Positions 51,972-59,706 of a stretch of 64,000 nt of DNA are shown here, piece by piece. The notes below the pieces were generated by a model. It ran no database searches and had not been told where the DNA came from. It saw only the letters and a program-made list of their open reading frames with translations. This stretch comes from a virus (lineage: Duplodnaviria; Caudoviricetes), in the IMG/VR virus record IMGVR_UViG_3300036770_005357. The stretch is one strand, 5' to 3'. Position 1 is the stretch's first letter, and the number at the start of each line of letters is the position of its first letter. The position numbers were made by a program, and so were the translations under genes.

Positions 51972-54900
51972 TTAGAAAGTTGTTGCTTGACCTAAAGAAC
52001 CAAATTTATTAGAAGATGCAGCTAATAACTGATTTGCCTTTTGTCCATCTATATAAACAGCTATTTGACCAGAACTCATTAATTGTGTCAATTTATCCAA
52101 TTTTTCTACAACTAATCTATTTGAGTTAACAATTGCATCTACAAGTTCATTTCCGACAGGTGTTTTTCCAGGTTCTCCAACTGCTTTAGTTGGTTCAGTT
52201 GTGCCGCCACCTACAATGTTTGTTACTAAAGATATGCCTTTACCAACAACATCCATTATAAATCCACCAATACCCTTTATTTTTTCCCAAACTAACTCAA
52301 GTCCTTTTAATACACCGTTGAATGCTGTAGAGAATACATTTCCAAATAATGTACCTATTTCAGAAATAATTGGTTTTACGGATTCTAGTGTAGATTTAAT
52401 GAAATCAAATCCCAATTTAAAAGGTGTAACTAACGAATCAAATATACTACTAACTGCGCCGTTAAGAGTACTTAATATAGTTGATAACATTTCTATGGTG
52501 AATATTGACTTTATAAGATTCCACGCCATTTTGTACGGCGCAGTCACGATGTCAAATACCTTGACAACTAAACCGGTCAATGTTGACAATACGGTCTCCA
52601 TCGTATCAGTGGTAAATATTTTTTTAATAACTGACCATGCTAATTTATATGGAGATAACAATCCGTCTAACAGCATGCTTCCAATTGATACTATACCGTT
52701 TACTATAGATAAACCCAATTTAGATGGAGATTTGCCACCGAAAAAAGATGTAATCCACTCCCATCCAGATTTAAATGCGGAAATTAAAGCTTCGTACAAC
52801 ATCGGACCTATAGCAACTAAACCTTTTACCAATAAAAGTCCTAGTTTTCCGACTACTATAAGTATCGCTTTCGGCAGTTTATAAAAAGAGAATATTAATA
52901 TTTCAACAAGTAAGGATCCAACATTTTTAAATATTTTTCCCCATTCTATTGGTTTTCCACCACCGCCACCTTTGCCTGTGAAAAGACTTTCAAACATGTC
53001 GGGTAATTTAACAAATGCATCTAAAAGACCCGTCGTTATGTCTTTGTATATTGCGCCAAAATCAACTTCTGCAAGAAAGCCTGGTATTTTCTTTATTAAT
53101 CCCCACGCCATTTCTAGTGGTTCTAGTATTAAACTTTTAAATACTCCTTTTAGCCCAGCGGTAATTTTGTCTCCCATCGATCCCGTTGTTTCGGTAAATC
53201 CTTTTATGAACGCGGCAACTCCTTGAACCACTGTTATTAAAATTCCTATTGGTCCTAAAAATTTAGCAACCGTACCAAACAAAGGCCCTATTTTACTGAT
53301 CCACCCAAAAGCGGCTCCGGCACCAACCTTGCCTAATGTGCCAAATAATCCGAGTATCGGTTTAAATACGCCCGTTACTAATTTACCAAATCCCGAAATG
53401 ATAGGTGTAATTGGTTTAAAAACTCCAGTTACTAATTTACCAAATCCCGAAGCAGCTGATGTAACAGGTTTAAAAACTCCAGTTACTAATTTACCAAATC
53501 CCGAAGCAGCTGATGTAACAGGTTTAAAAAGGTTGCCAATTTTTGAACCTACATTTGAAACTCCGGAGGTTATTGATTTTAAAATATTATTTGTTTTTGT
53601 ACGAAAATTTGAAATTCCTTCGGTAACCAGTTTAAAAATATTACTAATTTTAGTACCTATGATTGAAACACCAGACTTAATTGAATTAGTTACAGGCGAA
53701 ATTTCGGAACCAAATTTTCTAAATGCGTCTCCTATTTTTTTAGTAAGTGTTACAGATTCTTGTAACGGTTGAGTTGTACCACTAATTGCATTTTTTATTT
53801 TAGAAAATATTGTAAATACAGAATATGTATCTTTTTGAAATAAAGATATAAACATTCTTATTTTTAAGAACGGTTGAATTAATTCTTCGGGTTTAAGTTT
53901 TTCAAATAAATCAACAATTTTATCCATGACAATTGTTATTGCTTCTAAAACAGGCAACATAAACTTCTGCAATTGTTGATTGATTTTATTTTGCAAAGTT
54001 GCCATTCTTTCTTGATTACTCTTAGATTTTAAATCTTGTTCATATTTTTGTTGAGCCAATTTTGGATTATCTTTAAGAGCTTTTTGTTCTTTTAATCTTT
54101 CTTCAGCCAATTTTCTAACTTCCGGATCTTGCGATTTTAAAGCGTCTTTTATACGAGTTTCAGCTTCTAACATGTCTTGTAACTCTTTTACAGATTTACC
54201 AGCTGCTTGAGCAAACGCTTCTTGTGCCAACGGATTGAGTTGATTAAACTTTATTTTCTTAGCTTGATCTAATATAACTTTGTTAGCTTCAACCACTTTT
54301 CCTTGGAATGCCAATCTACGAGCTTCATTAAAGTTAATATTCTTGCCAATTAAAGCGCTTGCCTTAAGTTCGTTTTGTATGCTACTTTCAAAATTCAAAA
54401 GACCCTTAGCAGTAGCTGCCATATTAGTCAATGTGGTACCCATCTGTCTTGCTTGTGCGGCGGCTCTTACCATTTCATCCGCGTTTTTACCTGCAAACAT
54501 TCTTACATCATCACTAGCATCGGCAACTTCATTCATTACATCTTCTAGTCCAACACCATATGCTTTAGCAGCGGCACCTGCCATACTCAGCATGTTTGTT
54601 TTAGACTCAGCACTCTTACCGCTTACACCACCAATTGTTTTTAAGAACTTTGCACTTGTATCAGCTGATATACCCATTTGTTTGCTAAACACGGTTATAT
54701 CTTTTACCATTGCACTATTTCTTCCGGAAATATATGAAAAGTTTTTACCTACAGTTGATATTGTATTAGCAACATCTGTTGCGGATACACCAAAATGTGC
54801 TAAATCTACAGAGGTGTCTCTTATTTGTTTTTCTAATCCTTCGGCGTCTTTTCTAAATAAACCGAATTGTTGTCTTACTTGCGTTGTTACTTTATCTATT

Positions 54901-55520
54901 TCCTTAAATCGGTCAAAAGTCTGTGATAACATTTCTTTAAAACTAGACGGTATATTTAATTCTTTAAAAATAAATTCTTTTGATTTTAAAACGGATTGTG
55001 TCAATTTAGCGGTTTTAAATCTTTCTTTTTCTAACTCAACTATTTTACCGGAAACTTTTTTCTGTTCTTCTAAAGCCCTAACTTCTTCCATCAATGCATC
55101 TTTAACATCACCACTCGTAACCAACATTTCTTGTTGTTTTGCGTCTATTGTGGCCTGTAGTTTTGCTTGTTGTTCTAAAGCGTACTTTAAATTATTAGCT
55201 GACTCATTCATTTCCTCCTGAATTTTAGATGACAAATCGTAACCACCGGTTGTTTTAACTACACTTTGATAAAGTGCTTTCTGTTCGTTATTCATACGAG
55301 ACAGTCCACTTTCCAATAAGGCTTGTTTTTTTCTAGTTTCTACAATAGTTTCTAAAGCTTTGTCAAGATTATCTCCCCACTGTCTAGCTTTAGTAGAAAC
55401 GCGGGTAAACTCAAAGTCTAATCGTTTAAATGCATTAACAATTGCGTCGGCTTCAGGACCACCTCTTTCAAGAATGTCTACTATTTCTTTAGCTTTTGTT
55501 GAATCAAATGGGGTTGCCAT
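51972..55520 (-). CDS. Tail tape measure protein
   Basis: 1182 aa, helical/coiled-coil N-half, amphipathic 11/18-aa repeats; follows the tail chaperone pair. Confidence 0.9.
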   Translation of the reverse strand: MATPFDSTKAKEIVDILERGGPEADAIVNAFKRLDFEFTRVSTKARQWGDNLDKALETIVETRKKQALLESGLSRMNNEQKALYQSVVKTTGGYDLSSKIQEEMNESANNLKYALEQQAKLQATIDAKQQEMLVTSGDVKDALMEEVRALEEQKKVSGKIVELEKERFKTAKLTQSVLKSKEFIFKELNIPSSFKEMLSQTFDRFKEIDKVTTQVRQQFGLFRKDAEGLEKQIRDTSVDLAHFGVSATDVANTISTVGKNFSYISGRNSAMVKDITVFSKQMGISADTSAKFLKTIGGVSGKSAESKTNMLSMAGAAAKAYGVGLEDVMNEVADASDDVRMFAGKNADEMVRAAAQARQMGTTLTNMAATAKGLLNFESSIQNELKASALIGKNINFNEARRLAFQGKVVEANKVILDQAKKIKFNQLNPLAQEAFAQAAGKSVKELQDMLEAETRIKDALKSQDPEVRKLAEERLKEQKALKDNPKLAQQKYEQDLKSKSNQERMATLQNKINQQLQKFMLPVLEAITIVMDKIVDLFEKLKPEELIQPFLKIRMFISLFQKDTYSVFTIFSKIKNAISGTTQPLQESVTLTKKIGDAFRKFGSEISPVTNSIKSGVSIIGTKISNIFKLVTEGISNFRTKTNNILKSITSGVSNVGSKIGNLFKPVTSAASGFGKLVTGVFKPVTSAASGFGKLVTGVFKPITPIISGFGKLVTGVFKPILGLFGTLGKVGAGAAFGWISKIGPLFGTVAKFLGPIGILITVVQGVAAFIKGFTETTGSMGDKITAGLKGVFKSLILEPLEMAWGLIKKIPGFLAEVDFGAIYKDITTGLLDAFVKLPDMFESLFTGKGGGGGKPIEWGKIFKNVGSLLVEILIFSFYKLPKAILIVVGKLGLLLVKGLVAIGPMLYEALISAFKSGWEWITSFFGGKSPSKLGLSIVNGIVSIGSMLLDGLLSPYKLAWSVIKKIFTTDTMETVLSTLTGLVVKVFDIVTAPYKMAWNLIKSIFTIEMLSTILSTLNGAVSSIFDSLVTPFKLGFDFIKSTLESVKPIISEIGTLFGNVFSTAFNGVLKGLELVWEKIKGIGGFIMDVVGKGISLVTNIVGGGTTEPTKAVGEPGKTPVGNELVDAIVNSNRLVVEKLDKLTQLMSSGQIAVYIDGQKANQLLAASSNKFGSLGQATTF
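53413..53530. repeat. Exact 54-nt tandem duplication in the TMP (18 aa FKPVTSAASGFGKLVTGV)
   Basis: Units begin at 53413 and 53467, partial unit at 53521; degenerate copy 53359-53412. Confidence 0.9.
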
Positions 55521-55554: not shown

Positions 55555-55782
55555 TCAAAATGGTTTATCTATTTTCCCCGGCTTTTTAGAAGGTTGTTTA
55601 TAGGATTCGTTTTCTCTGTTTTTTATATCTACTAATTGGTGATAGTAGAAATTACGCAAGAATACAGGCAATTTATAAGCAATATCTACATTTATAGCTC
55701 CCTGTGAAAAGTAACACAATTCAAATATTTGTTTGTGTACAATTACTTTATACTCCGGCGTCAGGCCAAAAAAACTGTACCG
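55555..55782 (-). CDS. Unannotated start-less ORF (gpT-like tail chaperone extension), probably expressed by frameshift
   Basis: Open for 75 codons: RYSFFGLTPEYKVIVHKQIFELCYFSQG...LPVFLRNFYY...KPF*. No ATG or GTG; overlaps the upstream gene across a T7 tract (55774-55768). Confidence 0.7.
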   Translation of the reverse strand, partial: RYSFFGLTPEYKVIVHKQIFELCYFSQGAINVDIAYKLPVFLRNFYYHQLVDIKNRENESYKQPSKKPGKIDKPF

Positions 55783-56584
55783 TCATCGGTACATCCATCC
55801 TTTCTTCGTTCTGACACTGTTCACATGCAAAATTAAATCCTAAATCAAGTTCCGGAGCAATAGACTTTACATAACCTCTAAGCGCCATGCTGTCTCTTGA
55901 TAGTAATTCATTATCTACGAATTTAGCTATAGAAGCTGGATCACGCTTATCATCAATACTTGTAATCATTCTCTTTAAACGAGTAGTTACTTCAGCGCTA
56001 GCGTTCTTTTTGACTTTGGATATAGCTTTTGAATCACGATCTATATTTTCTTCATCACCCGATGTTAATAACTTGAAAGTGATTTTTCTCTTTGAAGTTG
56101 GAAATATAAACTCAAATTCATTGACTCCTCTCTCCATGTTTGAAAAGTCAACATCTTTTTCTTGAACTTCACCTAGATTGATAGTAACTTTGTTTTCAGT
56201 GTTACATCTCTTACATTCAATCTTAACGGGCCCGTAATTATCGCCATATGCCAATCGTCTAGCAGCAATAAACAAAGCGTTCTTGTCAACCATCAACAAA
56301 TCCGCCACATTTACACCTGGAGTTACAATCAAACTTTCAAGAAGTTTATCAAGAACAATACCCTTCTTTATGTAATTTTCATTCGTCAAAATATCTTCTT
56401 CTTTTGCAGTCATCATCTTCATATCAATACTGCCCTTGCTCAAGGGAGATTTTTCATCATAAAAATAACCTTTAGAAGGCAGGTTGATATTTTCAGCAGG
56501 ATATGTTGTTGAATTTACAGAACTTTTTGTAGAAGTAGATTCGTGTTCTTGTTTTAATTTTTGAATAAAAATTTCGTCGCTCAT
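55748..56584 (-). CDS. T4 gp26-like baseplate hub / tail assembly chaperone
   Basis: LPSKG.FY, MTAKEEDIL, AARRLAYG, two CxxC, SRD...LR.Y, FFWP end. Confidence 0.8.
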   Translation of the reverse strand: MSDEIFIQKLKQEHESTSTKSSVNSTTYPAENINLPSKGYFYDEKSPLSKGSIDMKMMTAKEEDILTNENYIKKGIVLDKLLESLIVTPGVNVADLLMVDKNALFIAARRLAYGDNYGPVKIECKRCNTENKVTINLGEVQEKDVDFSNMERGVNEFEFIFPTSKRKITFKLLTSGDEENIDRDSKAISKVKKNASAEVTTRLKRMITSIDDKRDPASIAKFVDNELLSRDSMALRGYVKSIAPELDLGFNFACEQCQNEERMDVPMTVQFFWPDAGV

Positions 56585-56633: not shown

Positions 56634-57536
56634 TTAAGTTTTGGCTTGATGTTTTGCGGCATCAACCATTGATTTTTTAGCATCTACAGTTTTCTTAGCA
56701 TTATTATATGTAACTTCAGCTGCATCTTTTTCTTCAGGTGTAGTAGCATTATCATACTTTTCTTTGGCAAGATTATATTTTTCTTGAGCGTCATCAAGTT
56801 CTGCTTGTCTTTGTGCTACTAACGCTAAATTAGCTTTGTGTGTTGCCGACTTTACTTTAGCTTCATCTTCTTTGAGAATATTACGAATAATAGATTTTAA
56901 AGCTTTTTTTTGTGATTCAGTAAGTTGTAATTCGCCTAATTTAGTATCCATAATGTTTTGTACGATTTTACTATACTTTCCAAATAAATCAGTTATAAAT
57001 AATTTCTTTTCTTCCGGTGATAAAGATACATATTGTTTTCTTAATTCACTCGCACTCGTTGCTGGTTTACCCAATACAGTAAATGTAGTTGTAGGCACAG
57101 TATCAATATAACCATGTTTTATAGCAGGTTGTAATTTATCTAATTTTTTAGGAAGTGGTTGTAAATACGACGGACTGCCATCCTTTTTAGTAAATTTGCT
57201 AAATCTGGGATCCTCAGACATGTCCTTTTCACTGACAGCAAAAATTACACTATCTCTATTTAAATCAATAGGTATTTTACCTTCTAAATTTGTTATATTA
57301 TAATTTTGAGTAACATTAAGTATTTTGTTCGCCGGTATACCCGTCAATGTCATCATTTGTAATTTTTCGTTGAAATCAAAAGGCGATTTAGGTAATTCCA
57401 CTTTATCGGTAGTTGTTATATATACATCACTACCACCGTATTTTGTACTTAAATAATCATATACTCCTTTGTGACCCTTGTGGAAAGGATGAAATCTACC
57501 GGGATAAATTACAAATAATTTTTTACCTAATTGCAT
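56634..57536 (-). CDS. HIGH-motif nucleotidyltransferase (cytidylyltransferase/NadM-like) with coiled-coil tail
   Basis: YPGRFHPFHKGH, SPF, SASELR. Confidence 0.75.
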   Translation of the reverse strand: MQLGKKLFVIYPGRFHPFHKGHKGVYDYLSTKYGGSDVYITTTDKVELPKSPFDFNEKLQMMTLTGIPANKILNVTQNYNITNLEGKIPIDLNRDSVIFAVSEKDMSEDPRFSKFTKKDGSPSYLQPLPKKLDKLQPAIKHGYIDTVPTTTFTVLGKPATSASELRKQYVSLSPEEKKLFITDLFGKYSKIVQNIMDTKLGELQLTESQKKALKSIIRNILKEDEAKVKSATHKANLALVAQRQAELDDAQEKYNLAKEKYDNATTPEEKDAAEVTYNNAKKTVDAKKSMVDAAKHQAKT

Positions 57537-57594: not shown

Positions 57595-58086
57595 TTAGTA
57601 TTGGAGAATTGCGTAGTCGTATGCTACACCAACAGTGATCATTTGAGCAGCACCGTCATCGCTCCAATCCATATCGGTGAAATCGGCACTGGTAATGAAA
57701 GCACCCTTCAATTGCCATTCTTCTACTTTATCGCCTACAGGTCCGAGAACATTAATGGTTATATCCTTCTTATAGAAGTCTTGATAACCATCACGACCTG
57801 TTACAGATTCGTGGTGCAAACGAACCCATTCCATTACTGCTTGAGCGCCAGAAGGAACAATTGGATCATAAAGTTCCATTGATACTTCATCCCAAACGCT
57901 CTTACCCTTATAGTAAGTCTTGACATTGATGTGATCAAGTTCTTTCTTAGCTTGAGTAAGTTTAGGGCGGTTAACCTTCTTTACGATAAATGACGGAATA
58001 CCGTCAACATAAAGAATAAATCGGTTTTTAACCTTTGGTTCAAACGCCGTATAAAATATTTCACTCGGATTTAGTAATTCTGCCAT
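57595..58086 (-). CDS. Tail tube protein (T4 gp19-like)
   Basis: NRF, RPKL, W..VSM.LYDPI, VMEW, YKKDI....LGP.G..VE.W.L.GAF......W. Confidence 0.9.
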   Translation of the reverse strand: MAELLNPSEIFYTAFEPKVKNRFILYVDGIPSFIVKKVNRPKLTQAKKELDHINVKTYYKGKSVWDEVSMELYDPIVPSGAQAVMEWVRLHHESVTGRDGYQDFYKKDITINVLGPVGDKVEEWQLKGAFITSADFTDMDWSDDGAAQMITVGVAYDYAILQY

Positions 58087-58194: not shown

Positions 58195-59706
58195 ATGAGT
58201 AGACCAAAAAATAATCCAGACTTTGTTAATAAAACATGTAAACATTGTAATGGTGTATATAGCGTTTCATTTTATAAAAGAAAAAAATCCACTTATTGTA
58301 GTAAGAAGTGTGCCAATTCCGATATAGATGTTTTAAATAAAATGAGAAGTTCCCAGTCAGAAACATATAAAGAAAAATATGGTGGTTTGCATCCGATGCA
58401 GACAAGAGAAACACAAAGTAATTTTCAAAAAGCAATTCTTGCTAAATATGGCGTAACTAGTTATAGCAAGCTTAAAGAGTATAATGTTAAAGTAAGAAAG
58501 ACTAAGCTGGATCGTTATGGCGATGAAAACTATACAAACATTCAAAAAATAAAATCTACTTGTCTAGAAAAGTACGGCGTTGATAATGTATTAAAGTCCG
58601 ATAAAATCCGTGACGAAATAAAAAATAAATCAAAACAAATAAGATATGAATTTTTAAAAAATTATTGTACCGTTAGAAACATAACGCCATTATTTAGTGA
58701 CAGTGAATATATCGGATATTCATTTAGAAACAAATATAAGTTTTTGTGTAATAAATGTAATAAGCAATTTGAAACGGATGTTTATAGGATCAATCATATT
58801 TTTTGTAATTACTGTAATCCTTTAGATAAAGATACAATTGAAAATGAAATATATTTGTTTGTAAAATCAATTGTTGCAAATGATATTGTTATAAAAAGAA
58901 AAGATAGAACGGTTTTAAATGGTAAAGAGTTGGATATTTATATACCTTCAAAAAATATAGCAATTGAATTTAACGGACTTTATTGGCACAGTGAGAATGG
59001 TAATAATATTAAAAAAACATATCATTTAAATAAAAGTCGTAGTTGTATTTCAAAAAGCATACGGTTGATTCATATTTTTGAAAACGAATGGGTTTATAAA
59101 AAAGAAATTGTTAAATCTATACTATGTAACATTTTGCAAGTTAATACAAATAAAATTTATGCGAGAAATTGTGTTGTTAAGAATGTAAGCCAAAATGAAA
59201 AAAATATTTTTTTAGAACATAACCATATTCAAGGCAAAGACAAATCTTCTATTCAATATGGTTTGTTTAATAACGGGGAACTCGTATCAGTAATGACCTT
59301 TGTTAAATCTAGATTTGATAAAAAAATACAGTATGAAATGTATAGATATTGTAATAAATTAAACACAAACATTATAGGAGGTGCTTCTAAATTATTTAAA
59401 CAATTTTTGGAAGACTATTCTCCTGATACAATAGTGTCTTACAGTGATAGAAGATATTTTAATGGTACAATTTACCAAACCCTCGGCTTTAATTTTATTG
59501 AAAATACACCACCAAATTATTGGTACATAAGTCCTGATTACAAATCGTTACATAATAGAATGACTTTTCAAAAGCATAAGCTTATAAAAGCATTGGAAAA
59601 ATATGATCCAACTTTAACCGAGTGGGAAAATATGTTACAGAACGGTTTTGATAGAATTTGGGATTGCGGCAATGGTAAATGGATTTGGAACTTAATCTAT
59701 ACTTAA
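58195..59706 (+). mobile_element. Hef-like homing endonuclease (Zn fingers, KYGV repeats, PD-(D/E)XK, Mom/GNAT-like C-terminus), antisense insertion
   Basis: CKHC...CSKKC, KYGV repeats, ELDIYIP...IEFNGLYWH, GGASKL, IVSYSDRR, RIWDCG. Confidence 0.8.

Follow-up and report, generated by a model that had tools for sequence, protein, structure and literature searches.

A probable programmed +1 ribosomal frameshift near the end of a gp26-like tail gene in a giant freshwater phage

Introduction

How is a reading frame of 70 codons translated when it opens inside the end of another gene, in a different frame, and has neither an ATG nor a GTG of its own? The question is raised by a locus on the minus strand of a stretch of 64,000 nucleotides (the whole of which is called the window here) from the IMG/VR virus record IMGVR_UViG_3300036770_005357, a 173-kb virus contig of 32% GC that is ~73% complete according to CheckV and belongs to a giant freshwater phage. 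The gp26-like gene of this phage, a member of the PF12322 family, carries a run of seven T close to its stop codon, and the start-less +1 frame continues from that run almost to the tape-measure gene. A first-pass annotation made from the sequence had proposed that tRNA-Phe slips on the U run and that a fusion of about 342 aa, similar to the G/GT products of phage lambda, is thereby made; the conservation of the site and the existence of natural single-ORF fusions in relatives, both described below, support that proposal. Taken together, the comparisons point to a programmed +1 ribosomal frameshift as the likely event near the end of the gp26-like gene, and make it very likely that the trans-frame fusion is produced by one mechanism or another.

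Tail chaperone genes with two products are among the most conserved recoding events in biology, and their frameshift is conserved in the long-tailed phages (Levin 1993; Xu, Hendrix and Duda 2004; reviewed in PMC5009743). The same review describes the G-T frameshifts as -1 shifts, conserved in long-tailed phages 'except T4' (PMC5009743). No report of a frameshift in the gp26/gp51 PF12322 family or in the cultured relatives named here was found in a literature search that left subscription journals mostly outside its reach. What is new here is the forward direction of the shift, the series of variant sites, and the controls provided by lineages with duplicated genes.

The slip site and its reading frames

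The gp26-like gene occupies positions 55748..56584 on the minus strand and encodes in frame 0 a short product of 278 aa (P0001), which matches PF12322 (T4_baseplate) with 53.6 bits against a cut-off of 24.5 (residues 46-273, profile positions 9-219 of 219) and phrog_150 (baseplate hub) at 5.7e-16; no other PF12322 match occurs in the 173-kb record. On the minus strand the gene ends GTA CAG TTT TTT TGG CCT GAC GCC GGA GTA TAA, with the T7 run at 55774-55768 and the stop codon at 55750-55748, so that the gene ends 21 nt past the run. The -1 frame at the site stops after two codons (TTG GCC TGA). The +1 frame is closed upstream by a TGA at 55785-55783 and thereafter reads RYSFFGLTPEYKVIVHKQIFELCYF...; around the tract its reading is R Y S F F G L T P E Y K V I V H K Q I F E L C Y, and it stays open for 70 codons past the tract, from GGC at 55767-55765 to TTT at 55560-55558, before a TGA at 55557-55555 that lies 34 nt ahead of the tape-measure ATG at 55520. 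This ORF holds no ATG or GTG, and its first TTG is found at 55719, 16 codons past the tract. The coordinates, the frames, the missing ATG and GTG, the 70-codon run and the 34-nt spacing that had been given in the first-pass annotation all proved exact when the sequence was read again.

A fusion of the two frames would have 342 aa if made by a +1 step and 343 aa if made by a -2 step. The +1 form was represented in the analyses by the virtual product P0123, built with the code word TGGC=G, whose predicted coding region covers 55555..56584 on the minus strand with one +1 step after the second TTT. Its elements, all on the minus strand, are the putative recoding block TTT TTT T GG CCT (55763..55774), which is nearly invariant among the loci; the proposed P-site codon TTT (55771-55769), followed by the T at 55768; the frame-0 A-site codon TGG (55768-55766); the first +1 codon GGC (55767-55765); an overlap zone (55748..55767) that reads (W)PDAGV-stop in frame 0 and GLTPEYK in the +1 frame; and the +1-frame extension (55555..55767) of 70 codons and a TGA, in which a conserved domain of ~50 aa is followed by a tail rich in Lys, Ser and Pro.

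Conservation of the site among relatives

Related loci were gathered from IMG/VR and from named phages, 95 in all, of which 89 are non-redundant and encode proteins with 44-90% identity to the window gene. The site and the arrangement of frames around it are present in all 89, so that the T tract and the frame offset, whose conservation had been named as the check to make, are conserved in every relative examined. The proposed P-site codon is TTT in 80 loci, CTT in nine and TTC in none, and the frame-0 A-site codon is TGG in 80 and TAC in nine. Elsewhere in these genes Phe is encoded by TTT in 80% and by TTC in 20% of cases; the second Phe codon of the site is TTT in all 80 loci that encode Phe there, and the codon before the P-site codon is TTT in 88 of 89. 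The codon after the A site is just as strictly kept, being CCT for all 88 Pro codons at this place vs 36% of Pro codons elsewhere, and the T of this CCT is also the middle base of a Leu codon in the +1 frame. Across 85 loci hardly any variation affects the 12 bases TTTYTTT(GG/AC)CCT, whichever codon position is considered, and on this comparison the arrangement is far beyond chance. Three departures from the common form exist, namely TTT CTT TGG in nine loci, Flavobacterium phage immuto among them, TTC TTT TGG in locus L027, and a run of eight T in locus L053, and the smallest element common to every variant is YTT_T.

Two further observations concern the DNA of the site itself. The summed contig depth over the bin that holds it (window positions 55737-55803) is 2-18 times that of the flanks in three independent metagenomes, and 55748, 55774 and 55790 are the end points of many metagenome contigs; it appears that many co-occurring phages share the conserved block and that assemblies break there. 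A blastn search with the region against named phages gave no match.

The +1 frame as coding sequence

The +1 ORF has 64-114 codons in every locus that reaches far enough, and its stop lies a short way ahead of the tape-measure gene or of one additional small gene. Room for one such gene (250-375 nt between the +1 stop and the tape-measure start) is found in about one third of the relatives (L028-L036 and about 25 others). The +1 peptide is conserved from the first codon past the site, that is, already within the overlap with frame 0, following the pattern GL[TS]PEY[KR]..H.QIF.L....GG......YNMP..LR.FY, with the consensus GLxPEYxxxLHxQIFxLxYxGxGGFxxxxxYNMPIxLRxFY for the extension; the frame-0 tail over the same bases differs among relatives in sequence and in length (2-5 residues after WP). 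In close pairs of loci, the differences at positions 1, 2 and 3 of the +1 codons are 0.11, 0.06 and 0.34, the pattern of a +1 reading under selection at the protein level. The stretch that is open in the +1 frame upstream of the site has a median length of only 5 codons. Independent starts in the homologues, the outcome that the first-pass annotation had set against its own proposal, are not a consistent feature of these loci, 55 of 86 having no ATG, GTG or TTG up to and including the position where the conserved peptide begins.

A profile search with the extension (A2) over 1.84 billion representatives found 1459 cluster representatives, most of which are listed by gene callers as small ORFs of 55-130 aa. 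Judged by the comparisons above, the small 'hypothetical' ORFs that precede tape-measure genes in these genomes are very probably not free-standing genes. The extension is modelled by AF2 as three helices with pLDDT values of 72-88.

Natural fusions and duplicated genes

Six proteins of 293-318 aa (P0152, P0161, P0184, P0198, P0234 and P0236) carry the PF12322 body and the extension in a single frame. They emerged from an exhaustive profile search, which overturned a word-indexed search for longer extension-bearing proteins that had returned none and so carries no weight. The virtual product P0123 is colinear through the junction with P0234 (37% identity, E 4e-55; QFFGLTPEYK vs SFFGITPQYK) and with P0161 (32% identity, E 4e-45), and the junction motif of the single-ORF proteins is FFG[IL]TP. 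In P0234 the junction SFFGITPQYK is encoded by TTT TTC GGC, with two residues and not three before the Gly, which matches the +1 product.

Each of the six fused genes lies directly behind a second, short PF12322 gene (272-300 aa where complete) and, where the contig suffices, after sheath and tube genes and ahead of a gene of ~1000 aa. For five of the six contigs, P0198 being the exception, the DNA was at hand, and the short genes on them end TTC TTC TGG CCC, TTC TTT TGG CCG, TTC TTT TGG CCC, TTC TTC TGG CCA and TTT ATG TGG CCA. None of these five short paralogues has the T7 run, the CCT or an open +1 frame, from which it follows that only genes with a +1 ORF behind them have kept the T run and the CCT. 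On the evidence of these lineages, recoding has an alternative in a duplication after which one of the copies is fixed in frame.

Proposed mechanism

According to the mechanism proposed, most ribosomes would read CAG UUU UUU UGG CCU and terminate at the stop 21 nt on, releasing the 278-aa short form. In a minority of passages, which is the efficiency presumed here, peptidyl-tRNA-Phe would stand on the second UUU with the A site awaiting Trp-tRNA on UGG, the tRNA-Phe would re-pair one base forward, from UUU to UUU, and the ribosome would resume at GGC CUG ACG, giving the 342-aa long form with the junction TVQFF-GLTPEYK and thereby adding a three-helix C-terminal domain of ~50 aa and a basic tail. 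At the CUU variants it would be tRNA-Leu that slips from CUU onto UUU. The P-site codon allows re-pairing one base forward in all of these loci (UUU_U in 80 and CUU_U in nine), and a +1 slip in the P site is preferred because it is the simplest event that fits every variant. The first-pass annotation had left the shift as '+1 or -2'; the frame offset itself stands, and the variant sites narrow the event to +1 as the likelier of the two, the -2 part of the claim having become less likely.

A slow A site at UGG is plausible. UGG is the only Trp codon among the 278 codons of the gene, and the six tRNA genes of the phage record (two for Leu and one each for Ile, Met, Glu and Lys) include none for Phe or Trp, nor was an odd anticodon loop reported among them. 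These genes form a cluster outside the window (G000:C1:59594-62630) with Leu-UAA, Leu-CAA, Ile-UAU (93 nt, unusually long), Met, Glu and Lys.

As to function, the PF12322 body shared by both forms may handle the tape-measure protein encoded next door, and the extension, made in smaller amount, may link the complex to another tail part, possibly the tube, the tube initiator or the hub.

Alternative explanations

Several points weigh against a +1 slip in the P site. The case for it is comparative throughout, and the probabilities that can be attached to the codon counts (P ~2e-8 for the second Phe codon and ~6e-8 for the first, if the loci are independent) overstate their independence, since the loci share ancestry. 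The locus alignment holds no conserved purine-rich block at -15 to -4 upstream of the site, RNAalifold predicts no pairs in a consensus RNA structure at the site, and folding is close to expectation, with mean z-scores of -0.5 to -0.9 over the loci and a minimum free energy z-score of -0.15 in the window. A small hairpin that contains the run itself was considered as a stimulator and set aside, since a ribosome on the site would melt it. A conserved stimulator is not obligatory for +1 sites. The strict first TTT is a further difficulty, as a simple P-site slip has no need of it, and it would fit a -2 slip, a slip of two tRNAs or slippage by RNA polymerase; weak E-site pairing, tandem slip or some -2 events are possible reasons for it. 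Precedent for the same slip codons is itself uncertain: UUU-UGG has been proposed as the +1 site of the Yersinia yopN-tyeA hybrid, where the downstream gene, unlike the ORF studied here, has its own start, and mutation of UUU-UGG in Yersinia pseudotuberculosis did not abolish the hybrid protein (PMC3789692), which leaves that precedent unproven.

The explanations that compete with the +1 P-site slip differ mainly in how they deal with the variant sites and with the natural fusions. In a -2 ribosomal slip on U7, tRNA-Phe would move back two bases and one more UUU would be read, giving 343 aa with the junction QFFFGL; the re-pairing on U7 would be perfect, the TTT CTT T variant would permit re-pairing onto UUC, and the first TTT, kept in 88 of 89 loci, would find its use. 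This event is nevertheless improbable, given that in L027 (TTC TTT TGG), which has no long homopolymer and where re-pairing is possible for a +1 slip and not for -2, the tRNA-Phe would land on UCU, that the natural fusions have two residues rather than three before G[IL] (SFFGITP), and that the common element YTT_T is precisely what a +1 slip requires. Slippage at the level of transcription, by which RNA polymerase would drop one U from the U7 run or add two, would account for a homopolymer of seven kept in ~90% of loci more strictly than codon usage predicts, and polymerase slippage on A/T runs is known to give two products (review PMC5009743). It is nonetheless quite improbable, as the +1 ORF is also intact in the ten loci, of 89, that have TTTCTTT or TTCTTTT and so contain runs of four at most, and the run never exceeds T8. 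For bacterial polymerases to slip efficiently, a run of seven is also short. Every public run with this DNA has it in the form of contigs, and the sole RNA run among them covers 56719-56873 only.

That no fusion is made, and that the downstream ORF is an independent small gene translated from a non-standard start or by re-initiation past the frame-0 stop, would agree with the 55-130 aa ORFs that gene callers list for most members of the extension family, with the annotation of the equivalent ORF of Bacillus phage HSE3, which begins with ATG, as gp075, and with the TTG found 16 codons into the ORF of the window. The peptide is, however, conserved from the slip site on, a point that precedes the frame-0 stop and, in 55 of 86 loci, any start codon; the block at the site is invariant at synonymous positions; and relatives encode the fusion as one protein, all of which makes a separate gene very improbable. 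A homopolymer sequencing error or a decaying gene, the true gene being one ORF of 342 aa, would draw on the fact that T runs are error-prone in some chemistries and that a single base is missing at 55768 from one DNA contig of run X5. More than 6000 homologues of P0001 in the protein collection, from many studies, are nevertheless all ~270-290 aa long and end at the same place, a uniformity by which the frame-0 stop is real and not the result of a homopolymer error; the T7 run stands in the same frame in 80 of 89 loci and in the cultured phage genome of Mel-JY01, and an artefact of this kind is scarcely conceivable.

A more speculative and rather unlikely variant of the forward slip would have the Phe-tRNAs of the P and A sites shift forward together on UUU_UUU_U, a tandem +1 slip that mirrors the -1 heptamer, operates without a stimulatory RNA element and is spread through a very large clade of aquatic myoviruses, with T4 gp26 and gp51 as a resolved G/GT pair. 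If that were true, T4 would be no exception to the tail-chaperone rule.

The +1 P-site slip and the -2 slip predict different junction peptides in cultured relatives, which make the reading directly testable: VNFFGLSNEYR (+1) or VNFFFGLSNEYR (-2) in Microcystis phage Mel-JY01, and SFLGLTPEYR (+1) or SFLFGLTPEYR (-2) in Flavobacterium phage vB_FspM_immuto.

Gene order, structure and putative chaperone role

By position and by the logic of its two products, the locus may be read as encoding a tail assembly chaperone pair of the G/GT type. The tape-measure gene downstream (51972..55520, minus strand, 1182 aa, ATG at 55520) matches phrog_58, 1272, 1535 and 4200 with E-values down to 7.8e-19, and the tail tube gene upstream (57595..58086, minus strand, 163 aa, gp19-like) matches phrog_4542 at 1.1e-27 and, below threshold, PF06841 (26.4 bits, cut-off 28.2). 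In 79 related loci the gp26-like gene is preceded by a tube homologue. The order tube, gp26-like, tape-measure is kept in those loci and in four cultured phages, of Microcystis, Flavobacterium, Bacillus and Streptococcus.

AF2 models the fusion with confidence, at a pLDDT of 84.6. In an exhaustive VIA-align search of 48,161 chains with it, YqbN (3klu) ranked second (Z 5.3, rmsd 3.6, 83 aligned) and the HK97 tail assembly chaperone (2ob9) fourth (Z 5.0, rmsd 3.8, 94 aligned); these two are the only high-ranking matches to the body of the protein and the best non-helical ones, both with Z below 8. Foldseek found nothing significant for the model, with E-values of 0.7-1.2 for chaperones. The structural likeness of the model to tail assembly chaperones is thus suggestive only and lies below the level that would justify claiming a common fold. 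A complex prediction for the tube protein (A4) with the extension (A2) scored 0.00 and carries no weight either way.

The gp26-like protein contains two nearly invariant CxxC pairs, C124/C127 and C254/C257, the second of them 15 residues before the slip site, and from their sequence it probably carries a four-Cys zinc site. The pairs are missing from one short paralogue of the two-gene form (L097).

Between the tube gene and the gp26-like gene lies an ORF of 300 aa (56634-57536, minus strand) with weak N-terminal cytidylyltransferase-like matches (PF01467, E 0.0025; phrog_395, 6e-7). The possibility that it is a hidden PF12322 paralogue was rejected, as it has no PF12322 match and BLASTP against a true short paralogue gave E 0.52. 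The tube gene abuts the gp26-like gene in most relatives, and room for the 300-aa insert exists only in the closest clade (L001-L011 and L016-L018). Directly upstream of the tube gene, a gene of 503 aa on the plus strand (58195-59706) resembles homing/HNH endonucleases (phrog_3339, 5.7e-125); relatives have the sheath gene at this place, and the endonuclease-like gene is probably a mobile insertion that splits the tail module.

Distribution and significance

The arrangement extends to distant members of the family. The PF12322 genes of Bacillus phage HSE3 and Streptococcus phage GXN1 (27% identity) are also followed by an open +1 frame up to the tape-measure gene, with TTC TTT CGT CCC at the site and a +1 peptide of the pattern QQFQLVYFGRMSFRDVDEM...R..MY.LL. 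In both phages (HSE3, L015 3746-3916; GXN1, L014) the gene ends GAR TTC TTT CGT CCC and a +1 ORF of 70-110 codons from the same extension family follows, which in HSE3 is annotated as a separate small gene, gp075, from an internal ATG. From these sequences, HSE3 and GXN1 probably have another unannotated +1 site, UUU_CGU.

If the +1 slip is correct, a large and widespread group of myoviruses uses members of the T4 gp26/gp51 family, and a forward slip at a plain UUU_UGG, for the job that other long-tailed phages do with their two-product chaperone genes. The group is marked by the 1459 cluster representatives of the extension and by thousands of gp26-like genes from lakes, rivers, the sea and the subsurface. 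The recoding field would gain a naturally replicated +1 site with its own variants (UUU_U and CUU_U) and with internal controls, the duplicated lineages that lack the site, and gene calls would be corrected for the small 'hypothetical' ORFs ahead of tape-measure genes.

Comparison with known systems

The closest functional parallel is the gpG/gpGT pair of phage lambda. In both systems the gene stands after the tube gene and directly ahead of the tape-measure gene, a slippery run lies near the end of the first ORF, the start-less second ORF ends just before the tape-measure gene, and the two products share their N-terminal body. The differences are that the shift here would be +1 (or -2) at UUU_UUU_UGG and not -1 at X_XXY_YYZ, that a PF12322 body of 270 aa with a probable zinc ribbon takes the place of the ~140-aa gpG, that the extension measures only ~50-70 aa, and that the present system is known from sequence. 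Since its target frame is +1/-2 and the -1 frame closes after two codons, the locus is best placed as a variant of the lambda G/GT type rather than as a plain member.

Forward shifts in virion or assembly genes have been described before. The tail chaperone gene of the haloarchaeal myovirus HSTV-2 is 'very likely +1', and cps/tsh of Listeria phage PSA shift +1 at CCC_UGA (PMC5009743). As proposed here, +1 recoding gives in both a C-terminally extended virion or assembly protein, and in HSTV-2 the gene would have the same position; the slip codons are different (a Pro codon in PSA), the proteins are unrelated, and neither belongs to PF12322 as far as was checked.

For the mechanism, E. coli prfB, which encodes RF2, is the nearest comparison. 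UUU-pyrimidine sites are prone to shift, and +1 sites of this kind were reportedly described by Schwartz and Curran in 1997 (cited in PMC3789692); CTT_T is the slip codon of prfB (CUU_UGA). There, as in the mechanism proposed here, the tRNA in the P site leaves YUU for the UUU one base ahead while the A site fills slowly, and nine of the present loci have the same CUU_U. In contrast to prfB, the waiting codon here is a sense codon (UGG or UAC) and not a stop, there is no conserved upstream stimulator of the Shine-Dalgarno type, and the purpose would be a second product and not autoregulation.

T4 offers a comparison within the family with its two baseplate hub assembly proteins. Its gp26 (208 aa) matches PF12322 over residues 1-206 with 215.6 bits and its gp51 (249 aa) over residues 1-201 with 177.5 bits, so that gp51, with a PF12322 body and ~48 extra residues, has the same layout as the long form predicted here; this gp51-type long form with its C-terminal tail corresponds to phrog_634 and PF28602. 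The junction motifs, FKLLVNPDE in gp51 and FFGL-TPEY here, look alike by eye, and a profile of the fusion aligned colinearly with a gp51 profile up to gp51 residue 249, if weakly (E 0.0023, probability 12.6%). Against a homology of the extension to the gp51 tail stands the comparison of the two alone by hhalign, which was not significant either with a single sequence or with an 8-sequence C-terminal profile. The alignment of the fusion with phrog_150 reaches no further than profile position 241 of 282, and a word-indexed search with the gp51 tail found three near-identical proteins only. T4 differs from the present locus in that its two proteins come from separate genes, one on each strand, with no shift of frame: the end of gene 26 reads KEFFELL-stop and offers no open +1 frame, and neither gene adjoins the tape-measure gene 29, genes 27 and 28 separating gene 51 from it and gene 26 being on the opposite strand. 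The earlier remark that T4 itself is not known to shift was thus correct, its two PF12322 genes, 26 and 51, being found instead. These comparisons support the view that gp26 and gp51 of T4 correspond to the short and the long form of a single chaperone. In Acinetobacter phage vB_AbaM_DLP1 (L103 122-877) the gp51 homologue bears the name 'tape measure protein assembly chaperone', given by those who deposited the genome, the only such record seen for the family.

The relatives with two genes share the layout of T4. They carry a short and a long version of the putative chaperone side by side ahead of the tape-measure gene, as the recoded locus would produce them, and the long version is what the frameshift is predicted to make; unlike at the recoded locus, a shift is not needed in these phages, and both the slippery run and the +1 ORF have been lost from their short genes.

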